Positions 1 to 37,762 of a DNA stretch of 64,000 bases are shown here, one piece after another. The stretch lies in IMG/VR virus record IMGVR_UViG_3300046744_000381, positions 32,001-96,000 of that record; one strand, written 5' to 3'. Below the pieces are notes generated by a model. It was not told the DNA's origin, did not search any database, and was given only the letters and a program-made list of their open reading frames with translations. The translations under genes were made by a program, and so were the position numbers. Position 1 is the first letter of the stretch; every line of letters begins with the position of its first letter. The stretch is from a virus.

Positions 1-170
1 GTAATACAGGTTGGGGTACAATTAAATTTACCAAAACATCTTTACAAAATAAAATAACAAAAGAAATAGGTTGTTGGCTAAATGAACAAAAGTTTCAAAC
101 AGTAACTAAAGGAAAAATGATAGATATAGGCACGTGGAAAGGCTACAATTATTATTTAAATAAATTTTAA
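1..170 (+). CDS. 3' end of a probable sugar-phosphate nucleotidyltransferase (partial)
   Basis: Frame starting at 3 reads NTGWGTIKF...GKMIDIGTWKGYNYYLNKF* with TAA at 168-170. A C-terminal DIGT motif is typical of NTP-transferase domains. Not in the ORF track. Confidence 0.5.
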   Translation, partial: NTGWGTIKFTKTSLQNKITKEIGCWLNEQKFQTVTKGKMIDIGTWKGYNYYLNKF

Positions 171-1217
171 AGGCTCTATCCATTTGTATAGTGATTTTTT
201 AGATAGTAAGTATTCTTTATTATATCTCAATGTATCTACATCCAACTCTATCCAATTATTTTGTTTCATCCTTTCGCAAGCACTTGTTATTTCTTTTAGT
301 AGTAATTGTAATCTTACACTGTGATCTTTTTCAATGTCAAATTGCAAATCAAAATATTTGTCATACAATTTAAATCCCATTTCTTTTAAGTAGTGATTAA
401 CACCAGGCTGCCCCCAAATTATTATAGGACGTTCATATAACATACTTTTCCATACTTTTTCTGTAATATAAAAACCAAAATCATCAATGCTAGTATCTTG
501 TACTAAAATAAATTTATATTCAGACAAAAAATTACTAGAACTTTCTGTCCATTTTATTGCTTGGCTATGATTTGTAAAATCTTTTCTATCCATTACAAAA
601 TCTTTGTTTAACACATTATGTGTATAATCTATTTTGTATTTTTTACATTGTTCTTGCATAGTTATATCGTCAATTTTAGATTGACTTAAATCTACAGGAA
701 GTTGCCTAGAAACTAATTCGTAATTCATAACATTACGATACTCTCTTGGAAACCTACTAAAAGTAGCAAATTTATCATACTTAATTTTTGATACAACAAC
801 ACTGCTATTGATAGATTGCGCCATTTGTATAAAAACAGGAAATGGATAAGTTTTAATTTTGTTTTTATACAAGTTACGGTTAAACCAATTAGTATAATTT
901 TCGTATTCTTTATTTAGATTTGCCGTTAAAAGTATAACATTTAATTCAGGCACCTCATACTTTATACAGTCGTTATGAATTATTTCATATAGTTTTTCTA
1001 TGCCAAAACTTATCCAACTACAATCTAAAATTAATTTAGTTTCTTTGGCTCTTTTTAATTCATCTGATGTTAATTCACAAAACATATCACCATCGTGTTC
1101 CCAAAAATCATTAAGAGATTTACAAACATATTTTTTTAAAAACTGTAAACTGTCTAACCAATCTCGGTTATAACTCAAACCATCTGCTAATATGGTATCA
1201 GGAATAGGATAATTCAT
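156..1217 (-). CDS. Glycosyltransferase-like protein (GT-B/GT10-like C-terminus, 'TEK' family)
   Basis: YITEKVWKSMLYERPIIIWG...LKEMGFKLY...FD motif; paralogue of 26878..27957. Confidence 0.5.
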   Translation of the reverse strand: MNYPIPDTILADGLSYNRDWLDSLQFLKKYVCKSLNDFWEHDGDMFCELTSDELKRAKETKLILDCSWISFGIEKLYEIIHNDCIKYEVPELNVILLTANLNKEYENYTNWFNRNLYKNKIKTYPFPVFIQMAQSINSSVVVSKIKYDKFATFSRFPREYRNVMNYELVSRQLPVDLSQSKIDDITMQEQCKKYKIDYTHNVLNKDFVMDRKDFTNHSQAIKWTESSSNFLSEYKFILVQDTSIDDFGFYITEKVWKSMLYERPIIIWGQPGVNHYLKEMGFKLYDKYFDLQFDIEKDHSVRLQLLLKEITSACERMKQNNWIELDVDTLRYNKEYLLSKKSLYKWIEPLKFI

Positions 1218-1221
1218 AAAA

Positions 1222-1228
1222 TATTTAG
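1222..1228 (-). promoter_or_regulatory. T4-late-like promoter CTAAATA, 4 nt before the ATG of 156..1217
   Basis: TATTTAG on + at 1222-1228, in the divergent intergenic gap. Confidence 0.5.
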
Positions 1229-1257
1229 TTGACGTTTGGTTAAATATATGTTATTAT
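1229..1257 (+). promoter_or_regulatory. sigma70-type promoter TTGACG-17-TATTAT with extended TG
   Basis: TTGACG 1229-1234, TG 1249-1250, TATTAT 1252-1257, ATG at 1263. A TAAATA box (1241-1246) lies in the spacer. Confidence 0.6.
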
Positions 1258-1262
1258 GGCAT

Positions 1263-1922
1263 ATGTCAAATGTAGAAACAGATGTAAATTTGGAAATAAA
1301 AGTGTACGAAAACATAAACGTTAGAGAATACAATCCATCTGATAGAGATATAATTGAAAAATTTAGGATGTTAGCTAAACGTGACGGCAATGAAGCACTT
1401 GCCGGCGACAAATACGACCCTGACACAGTAAATGGACAAACTTGGATGACATTTGTAGAGGACGAGCTTGCAAGTGTAAGTGTCGTCGAACGTAGTCATT
1501 ACACAGGAGATCCAAAAATTGCAGGACGTATTTGTAGATATCATATTTTAAAAAAGTTTAGGCATAGTAATGCTGGGTTTCGTATGTTGCCAAATCAAGT
1601 ACAATGGGCAAAGGACAATGGACTAAAAGTATTATACTGGACACACGATGTAAACAACAAAGCATTAAATGCAATGTATCAAGGTAAAAAACGTATGGGT
1701 ATGCGAGGCGAATCTGTTCCGTATTTTATGACCGATACTTACCGTGCATTTAAATTACAACCTGATATGATTTTTAAAGTAAGTGAAAAATCTAACTTTT
1801 TACAATATGTATATGCAAACATATTAGATGAAAATTATGTATGGCGACCAGATTACAAAACTATTTTGTACTGTATGCATAATGGCACTATAGACGATTC
1901 AGTAAAAGCTGCTGTTCTATAG
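1263..1922 (+). CDS. GNAT-fold acetyltransferase-like protein
   Basis: RICRYHILKKFRHSNAGFRML (motif A-like) and WTHDVNNKALNAMY (motif B-like). Start moved from TTG 1236 to ATG 1263 on promoter position. Confidence 0.6.
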   Translation: MSNVETDVNLEIKVYENINVREYNPSDRDIIEKFRMLAKRDGNEALAGDKYDPDTVNGQTWMTFVEDELASVSVVERSHYTGDPKIAGRICRYHILKKFRHSNAGFRMLPNQVQWAKDNGLKVLYWTHDVNNKALNAMYQGKKRMGMRGESVPYFMTDTYRAFKLQPDMIFKVSEKSNFLQYVYANILDENYVWRPDYKTILYCMHNGTIDDSVKAAVL

Positions 1923-2724
1923 AATCCTTAATGTAATCTGTTATACAAATTTTTTCACCTACGCTATTAAATGCCCACATCCAAATATCAGCAGGTATTA
2001 AATTGTTATCATTACAATATTTTTCTTGTAAGGGTTTTGCTATTTCTGTAATGTATGTTGCACGAAACTTAGGAAGTATAGTTTTTACAACTTCTGATGC
2101 TGTTGTATTAAAATAATTGTAACTATAGTATTGCCCTATTGGTAAAGTTAGAGTTTGTGGAAGGCTATCGGAAAATACAATACCTGCTCTAAAACCGGCC
2201 ATTAAGAAATTTTTACTTAAACTAAATGCAACTGCATCAAACACATCTAAACTAGTATCTAAAGTATCAAGTGTGCATCCATAAAAAGCACAATCTAAAA
2301 ATATTTTACAATTATTAGTTATACAATGATTTATTAAATTACTAAACCAATTAGTAATACCGCCTTCGTGATTAGGCTGACTTACTAATATGTAACTATT
2401 TGGCAAGATATTATCTATATCAGTTGGAGATATACAATAGTTTTTATATGGATCTAGTATACTGTAATAAAATTTATAATCTGTATCAAAATAATAAAAT
2501 TGATCATATTTACTGTGTATGTGAGCACATTGATGAGTTAGTGCCTCGTGTATACCATTACACATTGCCCACTCTTTTTTATTTTCGCAGCCACTAAAAT
2601 TTTTTATCCAGTCCATCCAATGTTTTTTATATAAAGAAACGTCTGTACCAGAACCTTTATTAACAAGATTAATTTTTTTTAATTCGTCTTTTATTGGTTT
2701 AGGACAAAAACTGTACACCGTCAT
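1888..2724 (-). CDS. Fold-type I PLP-dependent enzyme (aminotransferase/decarboxylase-like), short
   Basis: SQPN, FLDCAF (DxAF/Y) and FSLSKNF..AGFRAG (S-x-S-K...G-x-R-x-G PLP-lysine motif). Confidence 0.7.
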   Translation of the reverse strand: MTVYSFCPKPIKDELKKINLVNKGSGTDVSLYKKHWMDWIKNFSGCENKKEWAMCNGIHEALTHQCAHIHSKYDQFYYFDTDYKFYYSILDPYKNYCISPTDIDNILPNSYILVSQPNHEGGITNWFSNLINHCITNNCKIFLDCAFYGCTLDTLDTSLDVFDAVAFSLSKNFLMAGFRAGIVFSDSLPQTLTLPIGQYYSYNYFNTTASEVVKTILPKFRATYITEIAKPLQEKYCNDNNLIPADIWMWAFNSVGEKICITDYIKDSIEQQLLLNRL

Positions 2725-3404
2725 ATTATATACTTTCTTTTTGGCAAATCAGGATTAACAAACATAGACAAATCTATATCAAATTTATTATATTCTATAT
2801 AATTATCCAATATGTTGTACATAATTTTATGGTTTGAATTTGTAAAGTGTCCTTTTCTTAGATCTAGTTTTCCTATATTATAATCTGTTTTCCAATATTT
2901 TTGTTCTTTGTCAAAAACATCACACAAGCAAAAATTGTTATCAAAACTGTCTTTAAAACCCGGAATATACAAAATATCTTTACGTAAGTTTTTTATGTAG
3001 TTGAGATATGAAATGTGTTGGAAATTTGAATATTCTGTGTTTTCAATATACTTGTAATAATATAAAGCAGCATCTAATATATCATTCCATCCTTGTTTTG
3101 CAGCATCTTCTTTCCAAAATGTGCTATACTCATAGTTTACAAAGTGTCTAGTCTTATTAGTATCTTTAATTGTTATTCTTCTAGGATGCGTGACTAAAAA
3201 AATAATTTTATCAAATCTCTCGTGTGTTTTTGTAAACTGTTCTGCAGAAAATAAAAGACTAGCACTCCATTCACAAAAGTTTGTTATGTCATATTTTTCA
3301 GAAAGTAATTCCCACCAACTTTGCTTTACAAAAGGATATTGTGAATAGTCTTTTACACCTATAGGGTTTGCACCAAAACTATCACCGTAAATTGCAATTT
3401 TCAT
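2721..3404 (-). CDS. SGNH/GDSL hydrolase-like protein
   Basis: N-terminal IAIYGDSF and C-terminal GHF...H. Confidence 0.55.
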   Translation of the reverse strand: MKIAIYGDSFGANPIGVKDYSQYPFVKQSWWELLSEKYDITNFCEWSASLLFSAEQFTKTHERFDKIIFLVTHPRRITIKDTNKTRHFVNYEYSTFWKEDAAKQGWNDILDAALYYYKYIENTEYSNFQHISYLNYIKNLRKDILYIPGFKDSFDNNFCLCDVFDKEQKYWKTDYNIGKLDLRKGHFTNSNHKIMYNILDNYIEYNKFDIDLSMFVNPDLPKRKYII

Positions 3405-4140
3405 TTATAACCTCTGCTGCATTTTTGTGTGTTAACTTTCCAAAATGTAAAAAATCTCTTGCATCATCTAATTTAGGAAAAAAATCACACTTTAAAAGAT
3501 TTGCAGTTTCTTCAAAATAACTTGCTTGATAATAATTTGTTTTAGAACTCCAAAAGTGTTCACAAGCTAATGCTTCAAATTTAAAAAATTGTTGAGAATG
3601 AACAAGATTTTTATTCCATATTTTATACAAAACTTTCATATCATTGTTGTAATTATCCCAATGACTGCCAGACCAAGGTCCTATACGATTAATTTTATCA
3701 TCGGCGTAATATAATAATCTACCATAATCTGTCCATAATTGTATCACAGTATGCGGAATTCCAAAATTTTCAAAAAATTTAAGACTATTATGCCAACTAA
3801 AAATTGTGCTGGTGCCGCTTTGTCCAAGATTTATTACAGGTCTTTTTACAATATCACTCAATTGCTGGCAAATAGTTTCTTCAATAGCTAAAGCTTCTCC
3901 AAAGACTTGACTACAACCAAAAATCACAATAGAGTCTTCCCAATTTATGTCATTCCATTCGGCATCTCTATAAAAGTTAGAATTTAACTTGTAAGAAACT
4001 TCTTTATCATAATAATTCCATTGTGATCCTAATTGTGTTTTATTTTTCTCATAATCAGTTCTTTCTTGAATACTAAGATAATCAGGAAGTAAATTTCTAT
4101 TATAATTTTCAGCAAGAGGACCGTTAAGTAATTTATACAA
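3382..4140 (-). CDS. SGNH hydrolase-like protein (GCS variant)
   Basis: IFGCSQVFG, INLGQSGTS and DFLHFG (DxxH); TTG start. Confidence 0.55.
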   Translation of the reverse strand: MYKLLNGPLAENYNRNLLPDYLSIQERTDYEKNKTQLGSQWNYYDKEVSYKLNSNFYRDAEWNDINWEDSIVIFGCSQVFGEALAIEETICQQLSDIVKRPVINLGQSGTSTIFSWHNSLKFFENFGIPHTVIQLWTDYGRLLYYADDKINRIGPWSGSHWDNYNNDMKVLYKIWNKNLVHSQQFFKFEALACEHFWSSKTNYYQASYFEETANLLKCDFFPKLDDARDFLHFGKLTHKNAAEVINENCNLR

Positions 4141-4675
4141 TTAAATTTCCTTTATCATACAAATCTTTTACTACGTCAAAAGTGTAAGGAGGCATAAAAC
4201 ACACACTAAAATTTATTCTAGGATGTTTGCTTTTTGTATTATCCACCCCGTGAGGAATATTTTTAAAAAGAATAGGATCTTTGTACATTACACTTTCAAT
4301 AATAGAACCATTGTGTTTTTGTTTCCAGTCTTGCCAGTCACCTTCAGATCCTTTCCAATCTGGCATATGATAAAAATCCAGTGTATTGTTTTTATAACTT
4401 TCGCTGCAAGGAATTAAAATTGCACAGGTTCTGCCATTGTCAACGTGAGGTGGCAAATACTCTCCTGCTCTACAGGCAACTAATAATCCCATATAACTCC
4501 AGATTGGCAATAATTGATCTTTTAACCATTGAGGTTCATATTGCTTGTAATACTGTACATATCCTCTATTTTCTTCTTCTGGTGCTATTTCTACCCATCC
4601 TGACTTGTCATCAACCACGGCTTTAATCTCATCATAGTCCACATATAGTTCTTTTAAGAAAACATAATTACTCAT
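4133..4675 (-). CDS. Fe(II)/2OG oxygenase-like (DSBH) protein
   Basis: LPPHVD...ILIP...PHGVDN...RINFS: HxD...H...R pattern. Confidence 0.65.
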   Translation of the reverse strand: MSNYVFLKELYVDYDEIKAVVDDKSGWVEIAPEEENRGYVQYYKQYEPQWLKDQLLPIWSYMGLLVACRAGEYLPPHVDNGRTCAILIPCSESYKNNTLDFYHMPDWKGSEGDWQDWKQKHNGSIIESVMYKDPILFKNIPHGVDNTKSKHPRINFSVCFMPPYTFDVVKDLYDKGNLIV

Positions 4676-5433
4676 TTTCCTAATACCATTTTTTTAATAT
4701 TACACGTACTATCTAAAATATATTTTATTGCGTTTACAATATCTTTATCGTTGACATTTTGTTTCAAGTCAATACAGGTGTAATTTTCATTATTGCCAAT
4801 AAAGATTATAAATTTATCTCTATGCAAATCAGCAATGTGATTTTTGTCTGTAATAATTATAGTAGCATCGTCTAAATTATCGTGTGTGTCAAAAAACTTT
4901 TGCACCATATCATTATTATAATCTTGTCCAATATTATAATCTTGTTTCCACTTTGATATCAAATCATCGTTGCTAATTATATCTATCATATCGCTATAAG
5001 TCCTGTCAATATGAAACAACAAATTGTACCTAGGTTGATCGGTATAATTTACACCGTTGTGTATACTGTCTGCATTTGTGATAACCGGTGTACTATAATA
5101 ATAATCTACTTCTTTCTCGTCAATTTTAAATTTAATCAAGTGCGGATTAGGATCTATTGGTAAGATTAATGTGGCGCCCCTAGTAAAATCACTGTGCCAT
5201 CCTGTTTCGTGCCCCGGTGGTATATAACTAAAGCTGTATGTGCTTGTGTGTAATAATTTATTTTTTATTTTTATTGCTTCTACATTTAAAGGAAATACTA
5301 TATCTTTGTGTTCACTGAATAAAGTTTTACCTCTATCATTTGAGTATAAAGGCCAGTGGGTTATGCTTTGACAACATTCGTGCAAATATTCTTTGTTATA
5401 TTCAATATCAACTGTGACAATGTAATCATCCAT
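4672..5433 (-). CDS. Fe(II)/2OG oxygenase-like protein with a degenerate SDR-like C-terminal extension
   Basis: GWHSD...IHNGVN...RYNL. The C-terminal DIVNAIKYILDSTCNIKKMVL resembles the end of the adjacent SDR (YVADVIQWIIDAPECIESITL). Confidence 0.6.
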   Translation of the reverse strand: MDDYIVTVDIEYNKEYLHECCQSITHWPLYSNDRGKTLFSEHKDIVFPLNVEAIKIKNKLLHTSTYSFSYIPPGHETGWHSDFTRGATLILPIDPNPHLIKFKIDEKEVDYYYSTPVITNADSIHNGVNYTDQPRYNLLFHIDRTYSDMIDIISNDDLISKWKQDYNIGQDYNNDMVQKFFDTHDNLDDATIIITDKNHIADLHRDKFIIFIGNNENYTCIDLKQNVNDKDIVNAIKYILDSTCNIKKMVLGK

Positions 5434-5989
5434 TAGTTTTATCCTTTGTTAAAGTAATACTTTCTATACATTCTGGTGCATCAATAATCCATTGTATAAC
5501 ATCGGCAACATATTCTGTATTTAATTTAACTTCGTCAGGATGATATCTATCTACTAAAGGAGTATGCATATGTCCTAAACTGATATATGTACATTTTACA
5601 TTAGGAGTGATATCTTCTCTATTGTGATTAATTGTTTCACATAATCTTTGTAATGCTAATTTTTCAGCACCATAACTAATATATTTTAACCAAGGTTGCT
5701 CTTTATTAATGTGATCACTTATACTACCTATACAAATTAAATGCACAGTCTTTTTATTAGCTTCAAATAATTCATACAACATATGTAATAATCTAACTTG
5801 ACTATAATTATTCATTTTTTCTGTGTAACAATTTAGTATTATCACATCATAGTGAATTGCAACGTGACAAAATTTTATCATTCCTTCATCAGTTGATAAA
5901 TCGTAATTATTAGTTCTACTTGCATAACTGGTATTTTTTATAGCACTTGCTAATCCATATTCGGCATTTCCTGTGGTTAAAATTTTCAT
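5426..5989 (-). CDS. Short-chain dehydrogenase/reductase (short form)
   Basis: ILTTGNAEYGLA Rossmann start, ICIGS, catalytic YGAEK (YxxxK). Confidence 0.7.
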   Translation of the reverse strand: MKILTTGNAEYGLASAIKNTSYASRTNNYDLSTDEGMIKFCHVAIHYDVIILNCYTEKMNNYSQVRLLHMLYELFEANKKTVHLICIGSISDHINKEQPWLKYISYGAEKLALQRLCETINHNREDITPNVKCTYISLGHMHTPLVDRYHPDEVKLNTEYVADVIQWIIDAPECIESITLTKDKTNG

Positions 5990-6432
5990 TGTTTTGCTGC
6001 CTGTATTGTTAGACTTAATCTATGAGATTCAATTTCACTAATATCGTGCGGTACATCAACTTGAAGACGATGCCAAGTGGATATTGGTGCTGTAATTTCA
6101 TATATAATATTTTCCATATTGTCGTCATACCATCTTGTTTTGACATCCGGTCCTCCAGATAAAAGTGTGTAATTATAGCAAAACGTTCTGCCTTGATCAA
6201 TATGGGGAGTAAGTTGCCTGCCTGAAAGTTGGTAATATACTTCTACAGGATAATTAAAATAAGGTTGTAAAAAATCTTGTAATTCATTATCTACTTTGGT
6301 TGAAAAATACCACCAATCCCATTCACCGCTATCATCGAAAGCATTAGGTCTTTTATACAACTCCTCTATATCTGTAATTACTAAATTTTTAGGAATTGAT
6401 GGTATAAAATTAGATAATTCAAATAACTTCAT
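5986..6432 (-). CDS. Fe(II)/2OG oxygenase-like protein
   Basis: LTPHID...VPHDI...RLSLT. Start probably ATG 6432 (AAGGA SD) rather than 6453. Confidence 0.6.
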   Translation of the reverse strand: MKLFELSNFIPSIPKNLVITDIEELYKRPNAFDDSGEWDWWYFSTKVDNELQDFLQPYFNYPVEVYYQLSGRQLTPHIDQGRTFCYNYTLLSGGPDVKTRWYDDNMENIIYEITAPISTWHRLQVDVPHDISEIESHRLSLTIQAAKQ

Positions 6433-6910
6433 CGGATTTCCTTTTTTGTGCATACCAACTCAATGGCAATTTTAAAAATTTGTAATCTTCGCCTGTTACT
6501 TTTCCTCGGCAGTTACTACTACCGCATTTACATTCAGGAATATAATCTTTCTTAGTAAGCATAAATGTACCATAATCAACTGTTACAAATTCTCCTTGCT
6601 CTATATTTCTCAAAGCTCTAAAAACCACTTGACCGTCAATATACAAATTTGGATCACAACTGTGATTTATATATGCTTCGTACTCATTTCCTTGTGGTAA
6701 ATCAATAACAAGATCTTTATCTATTAGCAATCCTTTATACCATCCTTGCTCGCTAGGACGTCTAGCCATACCTCCTATTACAAAGATAATATCTCCTTTT
6801 TCAATTTGGTTTGTAGCATAACGACACAACCCGTGGACAGGACTTTCTTTTACTGCTGTATCACTATTAAAATAACAAAACCCAGTGTGCTGTTTATTCG
6901 AATCTATCAC
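6419..6910 (-). CDS. SET-domain protein-lysine methyltransferase with post-SET Zn motif
   Basis: SPVHGL, YINHSCDPN, ALRNIEQGEFVTVDY and post-SET CKCGSSNCRG. Confidence 0.9.
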   Translation of the reverse strand: MIDSNKQHTGFCYFNSDTAVKESPVHGLCRYATNQIEKGDIIFVIGGMARRPSEQGWYKGLLIDKDLVIDLPQGNEYEAYINHSCDPNLYIDGQVVFRALRNIEQGEFVTVDYGTFMLTKKDYIPECKCGSSNCRGKVTGEDYKFLKLPLSWYAQKRKSDEVI

Positions 6911-7442
6911 CGTGTAATTCCTTCAAATACGGATTACTATAATTTTCTCTTTCGTTAGCATTGTTAAAAATAAGATGTATTCGTGGTTCGTGATCGCCAT
7001 TTACAAAATTGTGCAATTGGTGAGTATCTGTCCAATATATTTTTCCTTTGGGCATATAGGCAACAAATGGAATGTCAGGAAAAACCATAAACGATAATTT
7101 AGAATTATTTATTATAGGAATATGATATCTAGTGTACAAATCAACGTGTGTGCTGTAACAACTTCGTTCGTGTAGAAACATAAGTCTTGCACTTGCTACA
7201 GTAAAGTCTAAAGTTGTTAAGACCTGTTTTAAATAGGTACCTTCTAAGTGAGGGTGAAAATTAATACATTTGTGTTCTATTCTAGTTTTGCCATATGCAT
7301 CTACATCGTCGTGCCAAGATATTTTAGAAGAATATTGTAAACAAATTTGACAATTATTCCATCCTACTAGGTCAATAATATTATTGCATTCTTTTGCTAT
7401 TAATTTATGATTAATTTCTTTTATTTCTTTAAAAGCCTGCAT
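6894..7442 (-). CDS. Aspartyl/asparaginyl beta-hydroxylase-like Fe(II)/2OG oxygenase
   Basis: ARLM...STHVD...RYHIPI...DTHQLHNFVN...RIHL; paralogue of 9515..10084. Confidence 0.7.
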   Translation of the reverse strand: MQAFKEIKEINHKLIAKECNNIIDLVGWNNCQICLQYSSKISWHDDVDAYGKTRIEHKCINFHPHLEGTYLKQVLTTLDFTVASARLMFLHERSCYSTHVDLYTRYHIPIINNSKLSFMVFPDIPFVAYMPKGKIYWTDTHQLHNFVNGDHEPRIHLIFNNANERENYSNPYLKELHGDRFE

Positions 7443-8101: not shown

Positions 8102-8104
8102 ATA

Positions 8105-8755: not shown

Positions 8756-8766
8756 AATACATCTCC

Positions 8767-12405: not shown

Positions 12406-12410
12406 AACTT

Positions 12411-12439
12411 ATTATAACACTCCTTAATTTATTTGTCAA
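12411..12439 (-). promoter_or_regulatory. Consensus sigma70 promoter TTGACA-17-TATAAT with extended TG
   Basis: Minus strand reads TTGACA AATAAATTAAGGAGTGT TATAAT AAGTT ATG(12405). Confidence 0.8.
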
Positions 12440-13757: not shown

Positions 13758-13761
13758 CTAT

Positions 13762-13767
13762 TATTTA
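13762..13767 (-). promoter_or_regulatory. T4-late-like TAAATA box 4 nt before ATG 13757
   Basis: TATTTA on + in the 19-nt intergenic gap. Confidence 0.45.
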
Positions 13768-13776
13768 ATAGAAATA

Positions 13777-14427: not shown

Positions 14428-14449
14428 TGTAGTCTCCTGTATACAAACG

Positions 14450-27957: not shown

Positions 27958-28171
27958 AAATTAATTTTATATCCTTACCGGGGCCAACTTTACTTGGTAA
28001 ATCTCCATATTGTTCAATATACCATTCTATTACAGCTATGTACCATTTTTGACTATTGTGATGCGCTTTTTTATTAAACTGCCAAATATTATCATTTGTT
28101 GCTTGCATAGTACTCAAAGCTCTAGCACTTTCTTTCTGCATTTCTCTTAATGTCAAATTACTTAAATCCAA
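27947..28171 (-). CDS. Small hypothetical protein (74 aa)
   Basis: Fills the gap exactly, overlapping both neighbours. Confidence 0.6.
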   Translation of the reverse strand: MDLSNLTLREMQKESARALSTMQATNDNIWQFNKKAHHNSQKWYIAVIEWYIEQYGDLPSKVGPGKDIKLIYER

Positions 28172-30831: not shown

Positions 30832-30837
30832 ACATTA

Positions 30838-30866
30838 ATTATACTAAGAAAAACTAATCTTGTCAA
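30838..30866 (-). promoter_or_regulatory. Consensus sigma70 promoter TTGACA-17-TATAAT
   Basis: TGTCAA 30861-30866 and ATTATA 30838-30843 on +. The predicted +1 coincides with ATG 30831. Confidence 0.8.
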
Positions 30867-30872
30867 CATTAG

Positions 30873-30880
30873 AATAAATA
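30873..30880 (+). promoter_or_regulatory. T4-late-like promoter AATAAATA
   Basis: Followed by AGGAG SD (30887-30891) and ATG 30898. Confidence 0.6.
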
Positions 30881-30897
30881 CATTGTAGGAGAAAAGT

Positions 30898-32346
30898 ATG
30901 ACTGATTTTATACCCGGAGATTCGTATCGAATTGATATTGTAGGTGCTGATAGCACATTAATTATTGATAGCTGGCTAAGCCAAATTAAAGCAAATGTTG
31001 TTAACAGAGATGGCGTTATTCAAGTTGATACAACATTTGGTAAGCTATACGGTCCTATGGTAGGAAATGTTGAGAATGAAGAAGGTGATGTACTAGTAAA
31101 TGCTAGTAGTCGTACAGTTCATATGGATGTTGTCGGTAATTTAAAAGATTCTAACAATAACGTTGTAGTAGATGTACAACGGAGTTTGTTAAAAGGAAAT
31201 TTTGAAGGTAATTTAGTTAACACTAACGGCGATATGATTTACGATGCGTCAACAAATACGTTGGTTGTAGATAGAATAGTAGGAGATTTATATGGAACTC
31301 ATCACGGAGAAGTTGAGTTAGTAGGATCTATTAGCGGAACAGTTAATGGCAATCTAATCGGATCAAGTAATGGTACACACTCGGGCGAAGTAATGGGTAA
31401 TGTAACAGGTGATCTACGTGGTGATGTAGTTGACGGCGAAGGCAACATTATGCTTAATGGCTCCAACGGTACTTTAAATGGAAATTTAAAAGGTGGTATA
31501 TTAACTCCAGACACAGATGAACACGTATTAACGTGGAATTCTACACTAAGACATCACGTTATTAGAGCAGGATTAGAACATCCTGATTCGCACAAATCTG
31601 TTTTAAAATTAGGCAATACTGACAGAGAAACTATGTATACAGGAAACATAAATTGGTATGATGATTCTCCTGTACTTACATTGCTAGATTATGATGGTAC
31701 AGATAAACCAAGTATACTTGCAGAATTTAATGGTTGTGTAATGGGCCAAGTAATTGATGAAAATAGAGCACCAGTGCTGACTGTAAATGAAGGACAAGTT
31801 AGACTCGAAGGCGGTTCGACAGGTGAAATCAATATTGGTTACAACAGCACAGAAACAATACAAGTATATGCTGACAATATAAGTTATAAACTTCAATCAA
31901 ACCCGGTTAACACTTCTAATTTAGGACAAGTAAATTATTTTGCTTTCAACGGTGACCACGAAAATATGCTTCCACTTAATCCTGGAGATCATTTGATGGT
32001 AAACACTTGTCACGCCTGGGACGGATTGTCATATAAAATCGGAGGCGGCTTTGGTTTTTATGCAAACACAGACGTAACACCAGATCCAGACTTAGAAATA
32101 TATCCAACAGATTTTGCAATTACGTTAAGCGATGGAAAAAATTTGCCTAGTGCATTTTGGGATAATCCAACAGGATTAAATTTTGACGGTAAGGGTGTTT
32201 TAGCAGTGCCAATTATGAAGTCAAAAGGTTTTACAGAAGCAGAAAAAACTGATATTGATTATGCAGATGAAGGTATGATTATATTTAATAAATCAACCAA
32301 AAAGTTTCAAGGATACAATGGAACTAGTTGGGTTGATTTAGGATAG
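30898..32346 (+). CDS. Virion fibre/structural-like protein with Gly-periodic repeats
   Basis: GxxxGxxxG runs (GSISGTVNGNLIG...GEVMGNVTGDLRG) and a C-terminal EGMIIFNKSTKKFQGYNGTSWVDL fibre-type motif; late-like promoter. Confidence 0.6.
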   Translation: MTDFIPGDSYRIDIVGADSTLIIDSWLSQIKANVVNRDGVIQVDTTFGKLYGPMVGNVENEEGDVLVNASSRTVHMDVVGNLKDSNNNVVVDVQRSLLKGNFEGNLVNTNGDMIYDASTNTLVVDRIVGDLYGTHHGEVELVGSISGTVNGNLIGSSNGTHSGEVMGNVTGDLRGDVVDGEGNIMLNGSNGTLNGNLKGGILTPDTDEHVLTWNSTLRHHVIRAGLEHPDSHKSVLKLGNTDRETMYTGNINWYDDSPVLTLLDYDGTDKPSILAEFNGCVMGQVIDENRAPVLTVNEGQVRLEGGSTGEINIGYNSTETIQVYADNISYKLQSNPVNTSNLGQVNYFAFNGDHENMLPLNPGDHLMVNTCHAWDGLSYKIGGGFGFYANTDVTPDPDLEIYPTDFAITLSDGKNLPSAFWDNPTGLNFDGKGVLAVPIMKSKGFTEAEKTDIDYADEGMIIFNKSTKKFQGYNGTSWVDLG

Positions 32347-32926
32347 GAATAACTGCTTCGGCTTCTGGCCACCTAGTCGAAGATAAAGTTTCGTAAAATT
32401 TATCAACATTAATTTTCCAAAAAGTTTGAAATGTTCCTTTGTATTCAAGCTCTACAGGATTTTGAAGAACACCTGCTTTGTGAAAATACTTTGCCCAAAA
32501 ATTATGCACTTTATTTTGACTACCGACATCACCGGTGTGTGTGCTAAGATATAAAGGTTTATCTCTACCGATGCCTTCAATACAAGCAGGCAACAAAAAT
32601 TGCGAAGCGTGTGAATAATGTATATCGGTCTTCCCTTTAAGACTCTTTACTCTATCTTTTCCGATTAAATGAGTTAACACACAAGTTCTTGCACCGATAC
32701 GGTATGCATTTTTTCCTAGTATTCCTAACTCTTCTAATTTATGTGCAACTACTGTTCCTACAACTCTATTATTAAAAAGTAATAACCAAAGTTTTGCATC
32801 TTCGTATTTTTTAATATAATCTATAAGCATTTCTTGGCTGCTGTTATTATAGAATTTTTTCTTGTGTGCTTCAATAAAAAAATCAGTTAGGTCTATATCG
32901 TTATTGTATAATTTTACTTCAAACAT
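32324..32926 (-). CDS. GNAT-like hypothetical protein
   Basis: LWLLLFNNRVVGTV...RIGARTCV...LLPACI loosely matches 1263..1922. Start set at MFEVK (32926). Confidence 0.4.
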   Translation of the reverse strand: MFEVKLYNNDIDLTDFFIEAHKKKFYNNSSQEMLIDYIKKYEDAKLWLLLFNNRVVGTVVAHKLEELGILGKNAYRIGARTCVLTHLIGKDRVKSLKGKTDIHYSHASQFLLPACIEGIGRDKPLYLSTHTGDVGSQNKVHNFWAKYFHKAGVLQNPVELEYKGTFQTFWKINVDKFYETLSSTRWPEAEAVIPILNQPN

Positions 32927-34292
32927 AAGTTTCGCATAAATCAAAAAAATCTGCCATTTCAGGAAAAACTTCAATATGATTTACTCCGCGTCGACGATTT
33001 TGTTCTTTAAAAAATTTATGAAAATCCTGTCTTCCTTGTATAATCTTTTCTAATGGATATTCTGTTTTTTCCATATAGTCAACCACACGTCTAAACTTTT
33101 CATACTCAATTGTACTAAACGCATCTTTACGTTCGTCGTCTACATTTTCTTTAATAAATTGCAAATGATCACGCATATAACTAAGATATTCTTTTGGCAA
33201 AATATTCATATCATATTGTAAAGGTTCTTTTAAATGTGGAGTATCAAACCCCAAACGTTGCCATCTATGTGTATCGACATTATTGTATTTTTTGCGCCAT
33301 TCTAATATTTTTTCTAACAGTGTACGGAATGTTGTTACACTAAAAATATTAAATGTAATCATTAAAACCATCGGTGCTTCGCAATTACGCATAAAGTAAT
33401 CTAAGTTGCGTTCAAACACTTCAATGTCTAATCCATCACGAATATATTCTGCACGTTTGCCCCAAGTATCAATACTTGTAAACATTTTAAAACGTCTAAT
33501 CTTATTATTTGTTAACAAGTTGTTTACACGATCTGTAAATTTTGCTAATTGTTTCGGTTTGCCGCCTAAGTTACTGTTACAATTAAGTTCTAATTCTGGC
33601 TTCGGATCTGCATCAAGCATATCAAATAATCTATATGTACTTTGCTGGATAGTCGGTTCGCCACCTGTAATACGTAGTATATGTAAATCTTTACTAAGTT
33701 CGGGCCACCATTTCCAAAATGCATCCAAATATGGATTATTTTCTTCTTCAAATATTTGAAACCAATCAATGTCGCATCTATGATTTTTTACCATATCATA
33801 AGGACCGTGTTGCTTGATCTCTTGATAATATCTGCTACTTGCTTTTGGATGACAATATCCGCAACGGAAGTTGCACTCGTTGCCAAACGAAACTTCTAAG
33901 TATTCTGGATTAACATCAAACTCTGCACCACCTTCTTTAACAGCATTTAATCTATGTTTAAAGAAAATAGTTTGATTGCGTTGTTTTCTGTCACTAACAT
34001 AGTCTTTACCCATTGCTTCAATCTTCCAGCAATAGTTGCATCCACTGGGCTGTTCGCCCTTCATCATAGCAGCACGTTCTGCTTTCTTTTGTGCTGTGTT
34101 GTGTATAGCACTAGGATTTTCCAGTAGCGGTGCTGTATCAATCTTGTGAGGAGCAGGATGATAACAACTGTGTGTTTCACCTGTTTGAAAATATATGTTT
34201 GCGTGATACCATTTAGCAAAACAAAACGTTGGAGATATTTCCTGCGTAATCTTATCGATACGCTTGATTTCTTCGCTTTCGCTACGTTCCAT
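32919..34292 (-). CDS. N-terminal twitch-domain radical SAM protein (class A)
   Basis: FCFAKW...HSCYH...CNYC; CNFRCGYC; TGGEP; NSN; SID. Confidence 0.9.
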   Translation of the reverse strand: MERSESEEIKRIDKITQEISPTFCFAKWYHANIYFQTGETHSCYHPAPHKIDTAPLLENPSAIHNTAQKKAERAAMMKGEQPSGCNYCWKIEAMGKDYVSDRKQRNQTIFFKHRLNAVKEGGAEFDVNPEYLEVSFGNECNFRCGYCHPKASSRYYQEIKQHGPYDMVKNHRCDIDWFQIFEEENNPYLDAFWKWWPELSKDLHILRITGGEPTIQQSTYRLFDMLDADPKPELELNCNSNLGGKPKQLAKFTDRVNNLLTNNKIRRFKMFTSIDTWGKRAEYIRDGLDIEVFERNLDYFMRNCEAPMVLMITFNIFSVTTFRTLLEKILEWRKKYNNVDTHRWQRLGFDTPHLKEPLQYDMNILPKEYLSYMRDHLQFIKENVDDERKDAFSTIEYEKFRRVVDYMEKTEYPLEKIIQGRQDFHKFFKEQNRRRGVNHIEVFPEMADFFDLCETYV

Positions 34293-35215
34293 TACTGTTC
34301 TCTATCTAAGAATTGTTTGCTGTTGTCACGTGCAGGGTTTTGATATACTGTTTTAAAAAACTTGCTTTGATTTCCATCAAATGGTTCGGCAGCAATAGGC
34401 AAATCTAGTTCATCTATTAACGAATATCCAAGGTCAACTGTGTCCTGTTCCATTTGATCTTCATCTAACTCTTTGTTGTCCCAATAATTGTTTAGCCATT
34501 TAAAATCACGTACATTTACAAAGTCCCAATCTGTACACATAGTTTTATATAAACCTTCTCTTGCTCCGTAAATAGCCCAACGTCCATTTTCTACATCTGC
34601 ACCAATCATTTGCCAGATGTATAAACGATGCAAGTTTTTCCAATGATTATTTTTAAATTCGTCAACTGTTACACGTAGTCCTTGATCTAGTGCCATCTTA
34701 ACGCCTTCACGGAACCCAGCACGCCACGCTTGATGAGGTGTAGCATTATTATGTACATCGCTAAAAGTTCCGTTCATCTGTACATATTGTGTATTCCAAC
34801 AAAAATCAACTTGAGCGTGTTGATTATCTGCAGGTGCATTTTCGTGTGTACGCATATCAAGAACATATTGCTTTGGCCAACATTTTATTCCTCCATTACC
34901 GTAGCTCAAGCCATTTATAACATTTTTTGCAGTCCAACTTATAACTTTATCTGTTAAATCTAAATTTTCATCAAAGTCTATTGCTTGTGAAAGGAAATCA
35001 TCTCTAATACAATTATCGCCATCAATAGTAATAAATCGATCAGTTTCACTTAATTCAGCACAAGCCTTATGAGCTGCATCAGATCCTTCGACACCGTGTA
35101 CACGTTTTGCCCACGGAACTTTTTTGCACAGATCTGCATAATTTTTTTCTGCATTTGGTTCATCGTAACTAAGATAAACAATATCATAATCAATTACACG
35201 GAATGTATTAGCCAT
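34292..35215 (-). CDS. GT-A-fold glycosyltransferase-like protein
   Basis: DIVYLSYDEPNA, RVHGVEGSDAAH, TIDGD (DxD), YGNGGIK, AWRAGFRE. Confidence 0.6.
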   Translation of the reverse strand: MANTFRVIDYDIVYLSYDEPNAEKNYADLCKKVPWAKRVHGVEGSDAAHKACAELSETDRFITIDGDNCIRDDFLSQAIDFDENLDLTDKVISWTAKNVINGLSYGNGGIKCWPKQYVLDMRTHENAPADNQHAQVDFCWNTQYVQMNGTFSDVHNNATPHQAWRAGFREGVKMALDQGLRVTVDEFKNNHWKNLHRLYIWQMIGADVENGRWAIYGAREGLYKTMCTDWDFVNVRDFKWLNNYWDNKELDEDQMEQDTVDLGYSLIDELDLPIAAEPFDGNQSKFFKTVYQNPARDNSKQFLDREQ

Positions 35216-35768
35216 TTATAACCTCGTGGTAGTATGTAGAAAACTTTCTTATAGTATAAAGGCTTACGTTAATATTGTCAATTTCAAACTTACTGGTAAA
35301 AGGTATTTTTTTTGTTTTAGAGAAATCTAATGTTTTATACAAAACGTTAGGATCGAATAACTTTGTTACACTGTATACCTGATTGCTAGGATTAATAGAG
35401 ATTTTTTGAGATTGCACATAATTTTCAAAGTCTTTGTTCAGTTCTAATTCCCAGCACTTACTTTTGTTATTTTGTTTTATTTTAACTTCGTAAGTGTCTT
35501 TGATTTCTTTTGGTATTTCGTAAACAAAATTTTGTGTATTAAAACTTTCGTTATACTGCTGTTTGCTTTTTAATACATATCTTTTTTCAATAAAGTCATA
35601 TTCAACTTTATAATCACGAAGTGATTCTTTGCCTTCTGCAAAATGACGAACTTGCTCAAAATCTACTAATAAGTTTTCAAAGTTTTCATCAGGGTTGCGT
35701 GTAACTTTATCAATTACACCGTTTTCATCAAAACAAACGTATCTATCAGTGCTAATTGTAATTCTCAT
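35208..35768 (-). CDS. Hypothetical protein
   Basis: 186-aa ORF overlapping both neighbours in the operon. Confidence 0.6.
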   Translation of the reverse strand: MRITISTDRYVCFDENGVIDKVTRNPDENFENLLVDFEQVRHFAEGKESLRDYKVEYDFIEKRYVLKSKQQYNESFNTQNFVYEIPKEIKDTYEVKIKQNNKSKCWELELNKDFENYVQSQKISINPSNQVYSVTKLFDPNVLYKTLDFSKTKKIPFTSKFEIDNINVSLYTIRKFSTYYHEVING

Positions 35769-36610
35769 TGTATTCCTAAATACTTTTCATATATGTTAAT
35801 TATACGGTCAACTACAAAGTCATCTTCTGTATAATGAAAAACTCCAGCTTGTGTATAATTGCCTATTTTAAGTTGCAAGTCTTCACCTAAATATGTGCCT
35901 ACACGATTTTGCCATTTATCAACTACACTGTTTTGCCAATTTTGTATTCTTGGCTTCATATGTACAAAGCTAGGATATTTAGCACGTGGGTTTGTTACTT
36001 GACTTTCTATGCCCATAATCTTTACAGCAATAGCACTTGATAAATCTATACTGCATTTACGTTGATACATTTTACCGCCGGTGTGTTGTCTATAAAATTG
36101 TTGCCAATTATTTGTTATCATTTCTAGCCAGGTGTAAAACTCGTGTGCAGTATCTGATTTTTTATAATAATGTAATCCACTGTATAGATTTGGTAGTTTG
36201 TTTTTTGCAAATGTGTGTCTATAGTAATCATTTGTTACAAGTTCGTTTCTATAAGTGTAAACATTACTTGTAAAAAACAAATCATAGTTTTTTAAAAAGT
36301 TAAACCAACTGCTAATATCTTGCAAAACAAGCATATCAGTATCCATAACTAATGATTCGTCATATGGAGTTGCGTGATATGTTTTCCATCTATTTTCTAT
36401 TTTCCAATCACTATCTTTAGCGTGATCTCCCCAAGGTATTTCTACAATATCATCGAAAATTTGTTTGTATTTGTCTTGCACTGTATCGTTGGTTATTAAA
36501 CATATTTTTGCATTTTCGTTAGTAGCACGAATACTCATAGCATTTAAATATGCTTGTTGTACATAATCAACATCTGTGTTCTGTGCAAGCATTGTAAAGT
36601 TATTGCTCAT
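35765..36610 (-). CDS. GT-A (GT8-like) glycosyltransferase
   Basis: TPYDESLVMDTDML (DxD), YSGLHY, FVHMK. Confidence 0.65.
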   Translation of the reverse strand: MSNNFTMLAQNTDVDYVQQAYLNAMSIRATNENAKICLITNDTVQDKYKQIFDDIVEIPWGDHAKDSDWKIENRWKTYHATPYDESLVMDTDMLVLQDISSWFNFLKNYDLFFTSNVYTYRNELVTNDYYRHTFAKNKLPNLYSGLHYYKKSDTAHEFYTWLEMITNNWQQFYRQHTGGKMYQRKCSIDLSSAIAVKIMGIESQVTNPRAKYPSFVHMKPRIQNWQNSVVDKWQNRVGTYLGEDLQLKIGNYTQAGVFHYTEDDFVVDRIINIYEKYLGIQ

Positions 36611-37418
36611 TGATAACTCTCGCTAAACTAAACTTATTCATAACGTGTAAATTACTGCCTTTAAATTTTACAAAAGTGTATTCCCCAAGTCTGTCTCGTT
36701 TTTCTACTAGTAAATCAAATGCATCGTCTTTTATTGATAGAAGTATGTCTCTATCAATTGCATAAAACTTTTTGCCAGGTATTGTACCAACAAAATTGTT
36801 TTCTGTGTATCCAGATAGTATATGCACTGCTATACTAAATGCAAAATCATTTCTGTACACAGTATTTTTAAATTGATACACACCTCTATAGTGTATATAA
36901 TTTTCTTTTATATGTTTAACTAAATTAAAAAAAACTTCACTTGTGTTGTTTTTTCTAAAATATATTACAGTAGCCCAATAAAAATCTATGCCGCCGTCAC
37001 TAATAGATTTAAATTCAGGTGTGCCATTGTGTATTCCTAAATGTGTTGCATCTTTGTATAACAAAAGATCTTTTTGCTGTGTAAAACAATTTAACAATTT
37101 ATCATTTGCTATTATATAATCAGTGTCCATTACAATAGTTTCTTCATAAGGAGATAAGTCGAAACTATGCTCTCTGCCGTAATTGTTAAAATTAAGAACA
37201 CGTTTGTTTAATGAACCATCTCGGTATGCTTTTCTGCTTGTTAATCCATCTTCTACTTTTATAATCTGATCAAAACACTTGTTGTCAACGTCAACATTGG
37301 TTACTAAACTCACAGGTAATTGTAGATATTTTTGTATGCGGTTCGCACAAAAAATAGCTTGGTTTACGTAATTTATACTTTCATTGTTAAATGCAAATAA
37401 TAGTACACCTTGACTCAT
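36600..37418 (-). CDS. GT-A (GT8-like) glycosyltransferase
   Basis: SPYEETIVMDTDY (DxD), RNDFAFSIA, LHVMNK; paralogue of 35765..36610. Confidence 0.65.
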   Translation of the reverse strand: MSQGVLLFAFNNESINYVNQAIFCANRIQKYLQLPVSLVTNVDVDNKCFDQIIKVEDGLTSRKAYRDGSLNKRVLNFNNYGREHSFDLSPYEETIVMDTDYIIANDKLLNCFTQQKDLLLYKDATHLGIHNGTPEFKSISDGGIDFYWATVIYFRKNNTSEVFFNLVKHIKENYIHYRGVYQFKNTVYRNDFAFSIAVHILSGYTENNFVGTIPGKKFYAIDRDILLSIKDDAFDLLVEKRDRLGEYTFVKFKGSNLHVMNKFSLARVINEQ

Positions 37419-37762
37419 AAATTCATAATACTTTCAACAGATCTTTCATTCATAAGTTTATTGTATTCTGTTAGGAATCTATTTGAATATGATTGATAAT
37501 TATTAAGAATTGCATTTGTAAATTCTTGTAAGTCTTCGCATTCAACAGGTATATCATTATCATCAATAATAATAGTTGACTCTTGTTTTAATGAAAGTAA
37601 GCTTTGACAAAAACTTATAAGTTCACGAGTAATGGAAAATTGACCGCCTTTGTAATACAAAACAAGATTTTCTTTGTATTGTTCTTTTAAGATTCTTGTT
37701 TGATTATTCAAGGTAACCATATAATTGCTTATCTCAAGGGCTTTTTCAAGACGTTCGTCCAT
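37415..37762 (-). CDS. Hypothetical protein, first gene of the glycosyltransferase operon (possible fibre-assembly chaperone)
   Basis: 115-aa helical protein with AGGAG SD, immediately after the virion genes. The chaperone role is a positional guess. Confidence 0.5.
   Translation of the reverse strand: MDERLEKALEISNYMVTLNNQTRILKEQYKENLVLYYKGGQFSITRELISFCQSLLSLKQESTIIIDDNDIPVECEDLQEFTNAILNNYQSYSNRFLTEYNKLMNERSVESIMNL

Follow-up and report, generated by a model that had tools for sequence, protein, structure and literature searches.

Gene islands rich in radical S-adenosylmethionine (SAM) enzymes have been published for several phages (PMC7029224, PMC2853527, PMC5332604), none of them biochemically characterized in the available text of these reports. 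Pelagimyophages and cyanomyophages carry a host recognition cluster, an island of the structural region that follows a giant baseplate protein and has a mean length of 44.6 kb in pelagimyophages; radical SAM cassettes, GT8 glycosyltransferases (GTs), UDP-glucose dehydrogenase and an Asp/Asn beta-hydroxylase were noted in it, the last belonging to the core genes of these phages (PMC7029224). Zaragoza-Solas et al. (2020) described this cluster as hypervariable and under-recruiting, and read its genes as modifying the host O-chain; the available text of that paper gives no classification of the radical SAM genes (PMC7029224). The T4-like Campylobacter phages CP220 and CPt10 harbor 11–12 radical SAM genes, some of them in exchangeable modules of five (Timms et al. 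2010, PMC2853527), and a T4-like Tara genome contains 12 such genes (Nishimura et al. 2017, PMC5332604). Here we describe an island with ten radical SAM genes in a 64,000-nt stretch (hereafter the window) that corresponds to bases 32001–96000 of the 136,876-bp IMG/VR record IMGVR_UViG_3300046744_000381, estimated by CheckV to be 38% complete.

The island (window positions 156–37762) comprises 45 open reading frames (ORFs) of at least 70 aa, termed g01–g45, 42 on the minus and three on the plus strand, at a coding density of 99.4%. Among the 44 neighboring pairs, 34 overlap, nine are 0–35 nt apart and one is separated by 66 nt. Its surroundings have the layout of a host recognition cluster, with gp25, a gp6-like protein, a 4592-aa protein, fibers and then the island itself with an embedded fiber-like gene, g38. 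None of the 45 island proteins has a predicted transmembrane (TM) helix (19-residue hydrophobic window, threshold 1.6). An earlier sequence-only reading of this DNA had described some 45 contiguous, mostly overlapping genes, with transferases closest to the fiber genes and redox enzymes more distal; both the count and the order are borne out, and its list of enzymes largely holds. Its statement that no characterized phage pathway of this enzymatic complexity is known was too strong, given the published islands cited above. We tentatively propose, at slightly less than an even chance, that the island enzymes form a cytoplasmic pathway in which a sugar-type group would be built, radically tailored, and moved to a macromolecule, probably the virion fibers.

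The radical SAM enzymes form three classes

The motif CxxxCxxC occurs in 10 of the 45 island proteins (g18, g19, g23, g25, g27, g28, g29, g30, g31, and g40). Seven of them (g18, g19, g23, g25, g27, g28, and g30) score above the Pfam Radical_SAM cut-off, and the three that score below it (g29, g31, and g40) are paralogs of others or members of family NF033640. Scanning all 136,876 bp of the record in six frames with Radical_SAM likewise yielded ten matches, every one within the island, confirming the ten enzymes counted by eye before. Most are concentrated in two adjoining segments: g25–g31 (17323–25374, with g30 on the plus strand), which form a radical SAM core that includes the QueC-like g26, and g18–g24 (11284–17339, minus strand), where the radical SAM genes g18, g19, and g23 stand with the nitroreductase g20, g21, g22, and the short-chain dehydrogenase/reductase (SDR)-like g24. 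The tenth, g40 (32919–34292, minus strand; CxxxCxxC at residue 140; NF033640, 300.8 bits), lies closer to the fiber genes.

The ten proteins fall into three paralog groups, or architectures. Six match NF033640 (N_Twi_rSAM) end to end above its cut-off of 170 bits (g28 424, g19 366, g40 301, g30 250, g23 240, and g27 209 bits); g18, g25, g29, and g31 miss this cut-off. The six carry a Cys-rich twitch-like domain N-terminal to the core, with invariant C28, C90, and C93 ahead of C146, C150, and C153. The cut-off was reached in none of 14 model genomes, a homolog search with g23 returned environmental proteins only, and a literature search found NF033640 catalogued and turned up no paper on its function. 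With six paralogous N-terminal-twitch enzymes per genome, the phage carries a radical SAM catalyst family without an assigned reaction. Class B consists of g29 and g31, whose closest solved structures are BlsE (E 1.3e-6), tetraether lipid synthase, and NifB. Class C consists of g18 and g25, with CteB as best match and MoaA, ChlB, and viperin also among the closest solved structures. The matches of both classes span the common core domain only. The closest solved structures of the radical SAM classes thus include nucleoside-sugar or nucleotide enzymes (BlsE, MoaA, and viperin) alongside the peptide-modifying CteB and SkfB. The NCBIfam BlsE model gave 22.8–24.7 bits against a cut-off of 400, and many NCBIfam peptide maturase models matched g18, g23, and g25 below their cut-offs.

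Predicted transferases lie near the fiber genes

Pfam identifies no glycosyltransferase in 26878–37762; the transferases described here were recognized through structural models, alignments, and profiles. The first island genes past the fibers (35765–37762, minus strand) are g45, a 115-aa protein without a family, and the paralogous, GT8-like g44 and g43. The latter two have no Pfam match at E 0.01 or better, yet their joint profile matches glycogenin-1 (GT8) with E 3.6e-5, over the N-terminal ~95 residues only, and includes an invariant DxD (D90, D92). They are followed by g42, also without a family, and g41 (34292–35768, minus strand). The AlphaFold2 model of g41 (pLDDT 86.7) has glycosyltransferases as its top Foldseek matches (E from 7e-4). 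Residues 1–156 reach Z values of 8–9.9 to many GT-A enzymes, B4GALNT1 (VIA) giving Z 9.9 at a root-mean-square deviation (rmsd) of 3.1 Å over 143 aligned residues among many other GT-A listed, and the motif D65-G-D67 is invariant. The model thereby points to a GT-A-fold glycosyltransferase with predicted catalytic activity.

A g41-like domain recurs in g37, whose residues 322–535 align with g41 residues 10–244 (34% identity, E 3e-35) behind an N-terminus of degenerate repeats. Together with g36 and the 74-aa g35 it occupies 27947–30831 (minus strand). The model of g36 (pLDDT 93.1) combines a helical-repeat domain with a C-terminal class I SAM methyltransferase fold; the C-terminal half matches methyltransferases in Foldseek (E 3.3e-7, probability 1.00), TehB among them with a TM-score of 0.63 and an rmsd of 3.8 Å. 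Of the about six GT-like proteins and the methyltransferase proposed before, four transferases are supported, g41 by its fold, g37 by its C-terminal domain, and g43 and g44 by their profile, while the remainder are not; the methyltransferase is retained for its fold, a sequence-level match being absent. PDB sequence profiles of g41, g36, and g26 gave nothing significant, a PHROGs search with ten core proteins returned only a weak match of g43 to a family with no assigned function, and NCBIfam yielded nothing usable for the ten family-less proteins. In two related loci (L058:5662–8688 and L053:4080–7463), a g41-like GT-A domain, a g37-like region, and a g36-like methyltransferase form a single ORF of 1008–1127 aa. 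Their fusion in some relatives suggests that they act on one acceptor.

Two further genes of this region are unlike the enzymes around them. The conserved helical protein g35 is 64–82% identical among relatives and usually stands between g36 and g31; its conservation is uniform, and it has neither a variable core nor a Cys. For g31 together with g35, a complex prediction reached 0.01, the mark being 0.32, and was not used as evidence either way. The 482-aa g38 (30898–32346, plus strand) runs on the opposite strand inside the enzyme island and, with the 216-aa family-less g39 (minus strand), fills 30898–32974. Aligned homologs of g38 (a cluster found in 32 of 80 related loci) share GxxxG-type Gly repeats and a conserved C-terminus, TAAATA precedes its start, and PDB matches are weak only. 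By these features g38 is a predicted non-enzymatic, fiber-like structural protein.

Accessory enzymes

Pfam was run on 44 of the 45 island ORFs, the 74-aa g35 being left out. The variable far end of the island (g01–g17, 156–11327, with g02 on the plus strand), annotated by hidden Markov models (HMMs) and motifs, contains the cupins g07, g11, g14, and g15, the nitroreductase g13, the SET-domain protein g10, the SDR-like g08 and g16, the HxD...H proteins g06, g09, g12, and g17, the GDS-motif proteins g04 and g05, the aminotransferase g03, the GNAT protein g02, and g01. A variable insert, g32–g34 (25353–27957, minus strand), holds g32, the UDP-glucose/GDP-mannose dehydrogenase-like g33, and g34, a paralog of g01.

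Several assignments made by eye hold at the profile level: two nitroreductases (g13 and g20), the SET domain (g10, E 4.5e-11), a UDP-sugar dehydrogenase (g33, Pfam UDPG_MGDP_dh_N 1.1e-15 and central domain 1.5e-13), a GNAT protein (g02, 22.1 bits against a cut-off of 20.7), and a pyridoxal phosphate enzyme (g03, partial class I/II aminotransferase match, 20.0 against 19.7). Others hold in part. Of about eight Fe/2-oxoglutarate oxygenases, g11, g14, and g15 exceed the Asp_Arg_Hydrox cut-off and g07 falls below it, whereas g06/g09 and g12/g17 show only an HxD...H pattern read by eye; searching the 45 island proteins with an HMM of the four cupins added no member. The three SDRs (g08, g16, and g24) are paralogous, but adh_short gives g24 no more than 19 bits, which is below its cut-off. 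In QueC-like g26, the PP-loop motif SGGADS is joined by a CxxCxxC at the C-terminus, and an Atlas look-up placed the protein among viral clusters that partly carry the QueC family; Pfam, including QueC PF06508, gave no above-cut-off match. A partial NTP-transferase found no HMM match among the 44 ORFs scanned, and neither an SGNH hydrolase (g04, GDS motif) nor a sulfotransferase-like protein (g21) is upheld beyond a motif read by eye.

A conserved core and a variable periphery

Scanning IMG/VR with g28 confirmed 172 of 173 candidate stretches, of which 80 loci were kept and fetched with ±10 kb; presence was counted by tblastn of all island proteins against these 80 loci. g28 is present in every locus at 81–94% identity (median 86%), followed by g29 (79/80), g31 (78/80), g36 (71/80), g41 (66/80), g35 (65/80), g25 (56/80), g26 (53/80), g18 (52/80, median identity 81%), g37 (43/80), and g24 (37/80). 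These genes, g18, g24–g26, g28, g29, g31, g35–g37, and g41, are the conserved core. g01–g17 and g32–g34 are rare or absent, with g32 and g33 in 0/80 and g34 in 3/80 loci. Radical SAM ORFs with the motif number 6–12 per locus (median 9) in the 38 loci of at least 21 kb. In four relatives (L074, L066, L067, and L061) the island stops after the g18 homolog and is followed by convergent MoxR/VWA genes. As several relatives pass straight from the g18 homolog to MoxR/VWA, the 11-kb far end is an expansion in this phage.

Core conservation reaches that of the virion shell. In one phage pair, g28 is 86% and the capsid protein 82.9% identical, so that g28 is conserved at capsid-protein level; fibers are 36–49% identical between phages. 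The link to the fiber genes is kept: in all ten loci that have a g43–g45 homolog and more than 1.2 kb beyond it, a fiber homolog follows in the same orientation, which extends the island–fiber linkage claimed for this DNA to its relatives. Islands of relatives add 103 gene clusters without a counterpart here, among them an AMP-binding enzyme (16 loci), a B12-dependent radical SAM protein, TauD, tryptophan halogenase, carbamoyltransferase, FkbM methyltransferase, cytidylyltransferase (CTP_transf_3), APS kinase, Asn synthase, GDSL, and GNAT proteins. Carbamoyltransferase, FkbM methyltransferase, cytidylyltransferase, and APS kinase are typical sugar-decoration accessories.

The gene kit is abundant: besides the 172 IMG/VR stretches, 2,194 clusters of metagenome proteins match g28 (E ≤1e-5), some of them on contigs of up to 353,636 bp. 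All words sampled from window 19001–29000 recur in 16 runs of seawater or marine metagenomes (15 studies, 2017–2025), so the exact genotype is widespread. Among cultured phages, the 255-kb Vibrio phage K566 (OZ196521.1 149937–180776, L101) carries three annotated radical SAM genes in ~5 kb and a fourth ~12 kb on. Their products are distant relatives of g28 (22.5% identity), and no virion or tail gene is annotated in this 31-kb stretch (49 features, mostly hypothetical).

Viral origin and virion module

The contig is viral, neither cellular nor chimeric. Beyond the window, this IMG/VR record encodes a T4-type major capsid protein gp23 (PF07068, E 4.7e-84; record 117603–118589), whose gene was found in four of five related records, and the window itself contains gp25, a gp6-like wedge, and a tail collar protein. 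GC content is 0.29–0.36 over island and virion genes and stays even over the boundary at 37.8 kb, without a compositional break. A search for Terminase_6N in the record was negative, which is uninformative at 38% completeness. CheckV figures for the five records (38%, 67%, 30%, 28%, and 26% of 137, 246, 106, 102, and 96 kb, respectively) all agree on a genome size of ~360 kb for the lineage. When 14.4 kb and 24.2 kb of the window were compared with GenBank phages by Megablast, no match was returned, so no close DNA-level relative is present there. The gp6-like wedge (1151 aa) matched 96 GenBank phage records, always below 60% identity; in 84 of these the match spans at least 80% of the protein. 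The top matches, at 34–37%, are jumbo myoviruses, Agrobacterium phage Atu_ph07 and Salicola phage SCTP-2 among them.

The virion module (37821–64000, minus strand) adjoins the island and lies outside it, with fibers, the 4592-aa protein, the gp6-like wedge, and gp25. Five fiber-like proteins, one with a Tail Collar domain, stand with a 201-aa protein without a family, the fiber proteins lying at 37821–45653; the Pfam matches of the module are Collar (9.2e-19), GPW_gp25 (3.5e-7), and CBM_5_12 (2e-6). The last is the single match of the giant 4592-aa ORF (46278–60056, minus strand), which lies between the gp6-like wedge and the fibers and may correspond to the giant baseplate protein of the VrlC type. 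None of the eight structural proteins checked has collagen-like GXY runs of the kind that would suit glycosylation of the hydroxylysine type.

Related gene sets in Bdellovibrionota

In scans of one genome per species, g19 by itself retrieved no relative, but a g28/g19 alignment returned 47 loci, 34 of them labeled as of Bdellovibrionota type. The carriers are metagenome-assembled genomes and chromosomes of Bacteriovoracaceae, Bdellovibrionales, and Halobacteriovoraceae, including a 2.9-Mb chromosome and contigs of 0.8–3 Mb. In the closest loci, g28 is 55–62% identical. Among the 34 loci, a g19-like gene is present in 34, g31 in 33 (median identity 44%), g18 in 22 (64%), g25 in 20, a g36-like methyltransferase in 19, a g41-like GT-A in 15, and g26 in five. 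None has g35, g37, g38, g43/g44, g13, or g15, SET and hydroxylase genes are likewise missing, and no phage structural gene was matched in any of the 34. Positions of GT2, Wzx, and DegT genes were read in one chromosome, that of 2.9 Mb (Bacteriovoracaceae), where two of 12 GT2 matches fall inside the 21-kb radical SAM locus; the classical polysaccharide locus, with Wzx and the two strongest DegT, is ~460–500 kb away from it. Short contigs labeled Flavobacteriales, Neisseriaceae, and others show 75–82% identity and keep g35 and the phage gene order, and are therefore probably phage sequences binned with bacteria.

Signals for early and late transcription

Promoter signals are given here as consensus matches only. 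With 140 sites on the two strands together, TAAATA is strongly depleted in the record, but it stands 5–45 nt ahead of 23 of 121 starts against 2.2 expected. These comprise nine of the 45 starts of the island, 10 of the 34 of the two structural blocks, and four of the 42 of the left, replication-side block. Examples lie upstream of 1217, 13757, 14427, 15549, 23063, 23096, 30898, 41624, 46258, and 63511. From its placement, TAAATA is likely the late-promoter core of this lineage. The classical T4 late promoter, TATAAATA, was also considered; it occurs once in the record against 17.45 expected, and the shorter TAAATA was used instead.

Sigma70-like sites matching at least 11 of 12 positions number 29 in the record, 12 of them within 80 nt upstream of a start. 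Strong sites precede g45 (27 nt, at 37789), g41 (at 35253), g37 (7 nt), and g18 (6 nt), and perfect TTGACA-17-TATAAT sites are found on the minus strand at 12439–12411 (g18) and 30866–30838 (g37). Their distance of 6–7 nt from the ATG would imply leaderless mRNAs or more downstream starts. With sigma70-like sites and TAAATA both present, the island appears open to early and late transcription. Four RNA-labeled runs from two studies contain short zero-mismatch contigs over island genes, covering g27, g28, g29, g30, g31, g33, g34, g36, g37, g38, g40, and g41.

Regions to the left of the window

Left of the window, the block continues on the opposite strand for another ~2.6 kb, with a fatty-acid-desaturase-like membrane protein and a fifth Asp_Arg_Hydrox protein. 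The desaturase-like protein has four TM helices and a perfect sigma70-like site. It belongs to a block that converges with the island (record 21488–32170, window −10512 to 170, plus strand; L100) and that further encodes a MoxR-type AAA ATPase with a DUF2201 VWA/metallopeptidase partner, a protein with a weak Mtd_N match, and a subtilase fused to a plastocyanin-like domain. Farther left, a single block (record 2695–18940; L099) encodes a Family B DNA polymerase, a GT-B, a GalE-like epimerase, a phosphoribosyltransferase, GTP cyclohydrolase I (FolE), and a 5'-3' exonuclease.

A proposed sugar-tailoring pathway and its alternatives

Starting from the observed gene content, folds, synteny, conservation, solubility, and sharing with Bdellovibrionota, the following scheme may be proposed. 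The core enzymes (GT8-like and GT-A transferases, methyltransferase, QueC-like protein, SDR-like protein, and at least seven radical SAM enzymes of three architectures) would make and edit a nucleotide-sugar or glycan group, and the transferases would attach the edited, sugar-type group to a macromolecular acceptor, most likely a virion protein of the fiber/baseplate module. The variable periphery, with its cupin hydroxylases, nitroreductases, SET, GNAT, and other proteins, would diversify the product among phages. Transferases, methyltransferase, and sugar dehydrogenase suggest a sugar-type substrate, as do the sugar-decoration enzymes of relatives and the GT2 neighbors in the bacterial chromosome. 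The acceptor is presumed cytoplasmic because no membrane component is present, the site behind the fibers is fixed, a fiber-like protein (g38) is embedded, and late-type motifs occur; the virion fibers are the most economical candidate. The proposal of the sequence-only reading, a tailored glycan or protein modification, is partly supported: four transferases and a methyltransferase, the accessories of relatives, the Bacteriovoracaceae GT2 context, and the lack of membrane and lipid-carrier machinery speak for a glycan.

In this scheme, the sugar substrate, the virion target, and the roles of the radical SAM enzymes, for example in C–H oxidation, epimerization, decarboxylation, or C-methylation, are what we infer from the above. 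Several points weigh against a sugar-tailoring pathway that acts on the virion. Ten of the 45 island genes have no family match in Pfam or NCBIfam, and Pfam detected no NTP-transferase, 4,6-dehydratase, or DegT, the canonical nucleotide-sugar starters, in the 44 ORFs scanned. The matches to BlsE, MoaA, and viperin span the shared core domain only and lie far below family cut-offs; the Z values of the g41 GT-A fold are modest for its kind; and the modification of proteins or peptides, too, typically involves SPASM/twitch radical SAM enzymes, SET domains, and Asp/Arg hydroxylases. In the 2.9-Mb chromosome, the only Wzx match and all eight DegT lie outside the radical SAM locus. Finally, the four sigma70-like sites suggest early transcription by the host polymerase besides late transcription, and the RNA-library contigs, which inform on neither strand nor expression level, may be DNA carry-over.

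If the acceptor were the cell rather than the virion, the enzymes would alter the nucleotide-sugars, lipopolysaccharide, or capsule of the infected host, for example as a superinfection block or surface change, as was proposed for the host recognition cluster of pelagimyophages on account of its GT8, UDP-glucose dehydrogenase, and related genes (PMC7029224). The sites ahead of g45, g41, g37, and g18 would permit early expression, and the desaturase-like membrane protein flanks the island. In addition, the lipid A hydroxylase LpxO belongs to the Asp_Arg_Hydrox family. However, none of the 45 proteins has a TM helix, and Wzx, Wzy, Gtr, and polyprenyl-phosphate transferase were not detected in the Pfam scans of the island, although sugar supply to host machinery would still be possible without them. 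Capsid-level conservation of the core alongside divergent fibers (36–49% identity) also fits poorly with a surface glycan specific to host strains, and the kit is separate from the Wzx/DegT locus in the Bacteriovoracaceae chromosome. We therefore consider remodeling of the host envelope unlikely.

The radical SAM enzymes might instead act on a phage protein without any sugar, the fibers, g38, or g35 being modified together with SET, hydroxylase, and nitroreductase proteins in the manner of a peptide that is made by ribosomes and modified after translation (RiPP). The sub-cut-off peptide maturase matches of g18, g23, and g25, CteB and SkfB among the nearest solved structures, the presence of SET and Asp_Arg_Hydrox proteins, the helical repeats ahead of the methyltransferase fold of g36, and the conserved 74-aa g35, usually between g36 and g31, would all suit such a system. 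Yet g35, the sole small conserved ORF among those of at least 70 aa, lacks the variable core of a precursor and any Cys, and library scans covering ORFs of at least 70 aa found no RRE/PqqD, protease, or transporter family. Moreover, all 34 Bdellovibrionota loci keep the core but are without g35, g38, SET, and hydroxylases, and the four transferases require a sugar donor, which together make a sugar-independent modification rather improbable.

Hypermodification of a nucleobase, nucleotide, or DNA, in which a 7-deazapurine or some other base would be elaborated by QueC-like g26 with the radical SAM enzymes and then enter the phage DNA, draws on g26 itself, on viperin, MoaA, and BlsE (nucleotide/nucleoside enzymes) among the nearest solved structures, and on FolE, phosphoribosyltransferase, GT-B, and GalE-like epimerase genes 12–21 kb left of the window. 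QueC itself was not matched above cut-off, though, and PF01702 (TGT), which a divergent DpdA could escape, is found in none of the five related records; the island sits behind the fiber genes, away from the replication genes, and g26 occurs in only five of the 34 core-bearing Bdellovibrionota loci, so we regard this alternative as quite improbable. Very improbable, lastly, is a diffusible natural product made in infection (an aminoglycoside-like or nucleoside antibiotic, or a signal), for which the layout with a conserved core and variable tailoring genes resembles a biosynthetic gene cluster and relatives add an AMP-binding enzyme (16 loci), tryptophan halogenase, B12-dependent radical SAM, carbamoyltransferase, and Asn synthase, but for which island scans detected no exporter, resistance gene, polyketide, non-ribosomal peptide, or cyclitol synthase, and in which the kept linkage to fiber genes would be unexpected.

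Returning to the sugar-tailoring pathway, a product that decorates virions would make this a phage glycosylation system with unusual radical chemistry, relevant to host recognition in the ocean. A broader idea, which we regard as doubtful, is that the core represents a new radical SAM glycan chemistry, in which the N-terminal-twitch enzymes, together with those of classes B and C, the QueC-like ATPase, the methyltransferase, and the GT-A transferases, would make a novel, heavily C–H-functionalized sugar that is placed both on the tail fibers of an abundant lineage of marine jumbo phages and on a surface or secreted structure of the predatory Bdellovibrionota; if true, phage adsorption and bacterial predation would be linked via one common decoration. 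The Bdellovibrionota copies reside in cellular genomes, some labeled Bdellovibrio, a genus with cultured members, and thus offer a possible route to testing the enzymes.

Comparison with known systems

BtrN and DesII are radical SAM enzymes with a twitch or auxiliary cluster that act on sugars or nucleosides, and BlsE, BtrN, and DesII exemplify C–H oxidation, epimerization, decarboxylation, or C-methylation. Auxiliary Cys clusters are common to these enzymes and to those of the island, whereas in six island enzymes the auxiliary domain is N-terminal. On the transferase side, A64R of chlorovirus PBCV-1 (2p73) and mimivirus R699 (9dzs) are among the fold matches of g41, a similarity that is generic for GT-A. 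Both are soluble, virus-encoded GT-A enzymes that act on virion proteins without host membrane machinery; they belong to giant viruses of eukaryotes, unlike the phage island, and we know of no radical SAM enzymes in chlorovirus or mimivirus virion glycosylation. The Bdellovibrionota kit shares with the island clustered g28, g18, g31, g19-like, g36-like, and g41-like genes, but is without g35, g37, g38, the GT8 pair, nitroreductase, and Asp/Arg hydroxylase.

Campylobacter phages, whose radical SAM modules go with an amidinotransferase and, in the available text, are not described as fiber-adjacent (PMC2853527), are no close relatives: tblastn with g28 against 50,697 GenBank phage records gave three matches, with no Campylobacter phage among them. 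A literature search did not turn up the jumbo-phage lineage, a core conserved at capsid level, a three-class set with six N-terminal-twitch enzymes, or a kit shared with Bdellovibrionota. The closest described system, the host recognition cluster, belongs to genomes of 132–164 kb (PMC7029224), whereas the lineage described here has ~360 kb and a wedge closest to those of the Rak2/Atu_ph07 type. That cluster was characterized as hypervariable (PMC7029224); here, g01–g17 and several paralogs vary, whereas the core, with at least seven radical SAM genes, is conserved at the level of the capsid protein.

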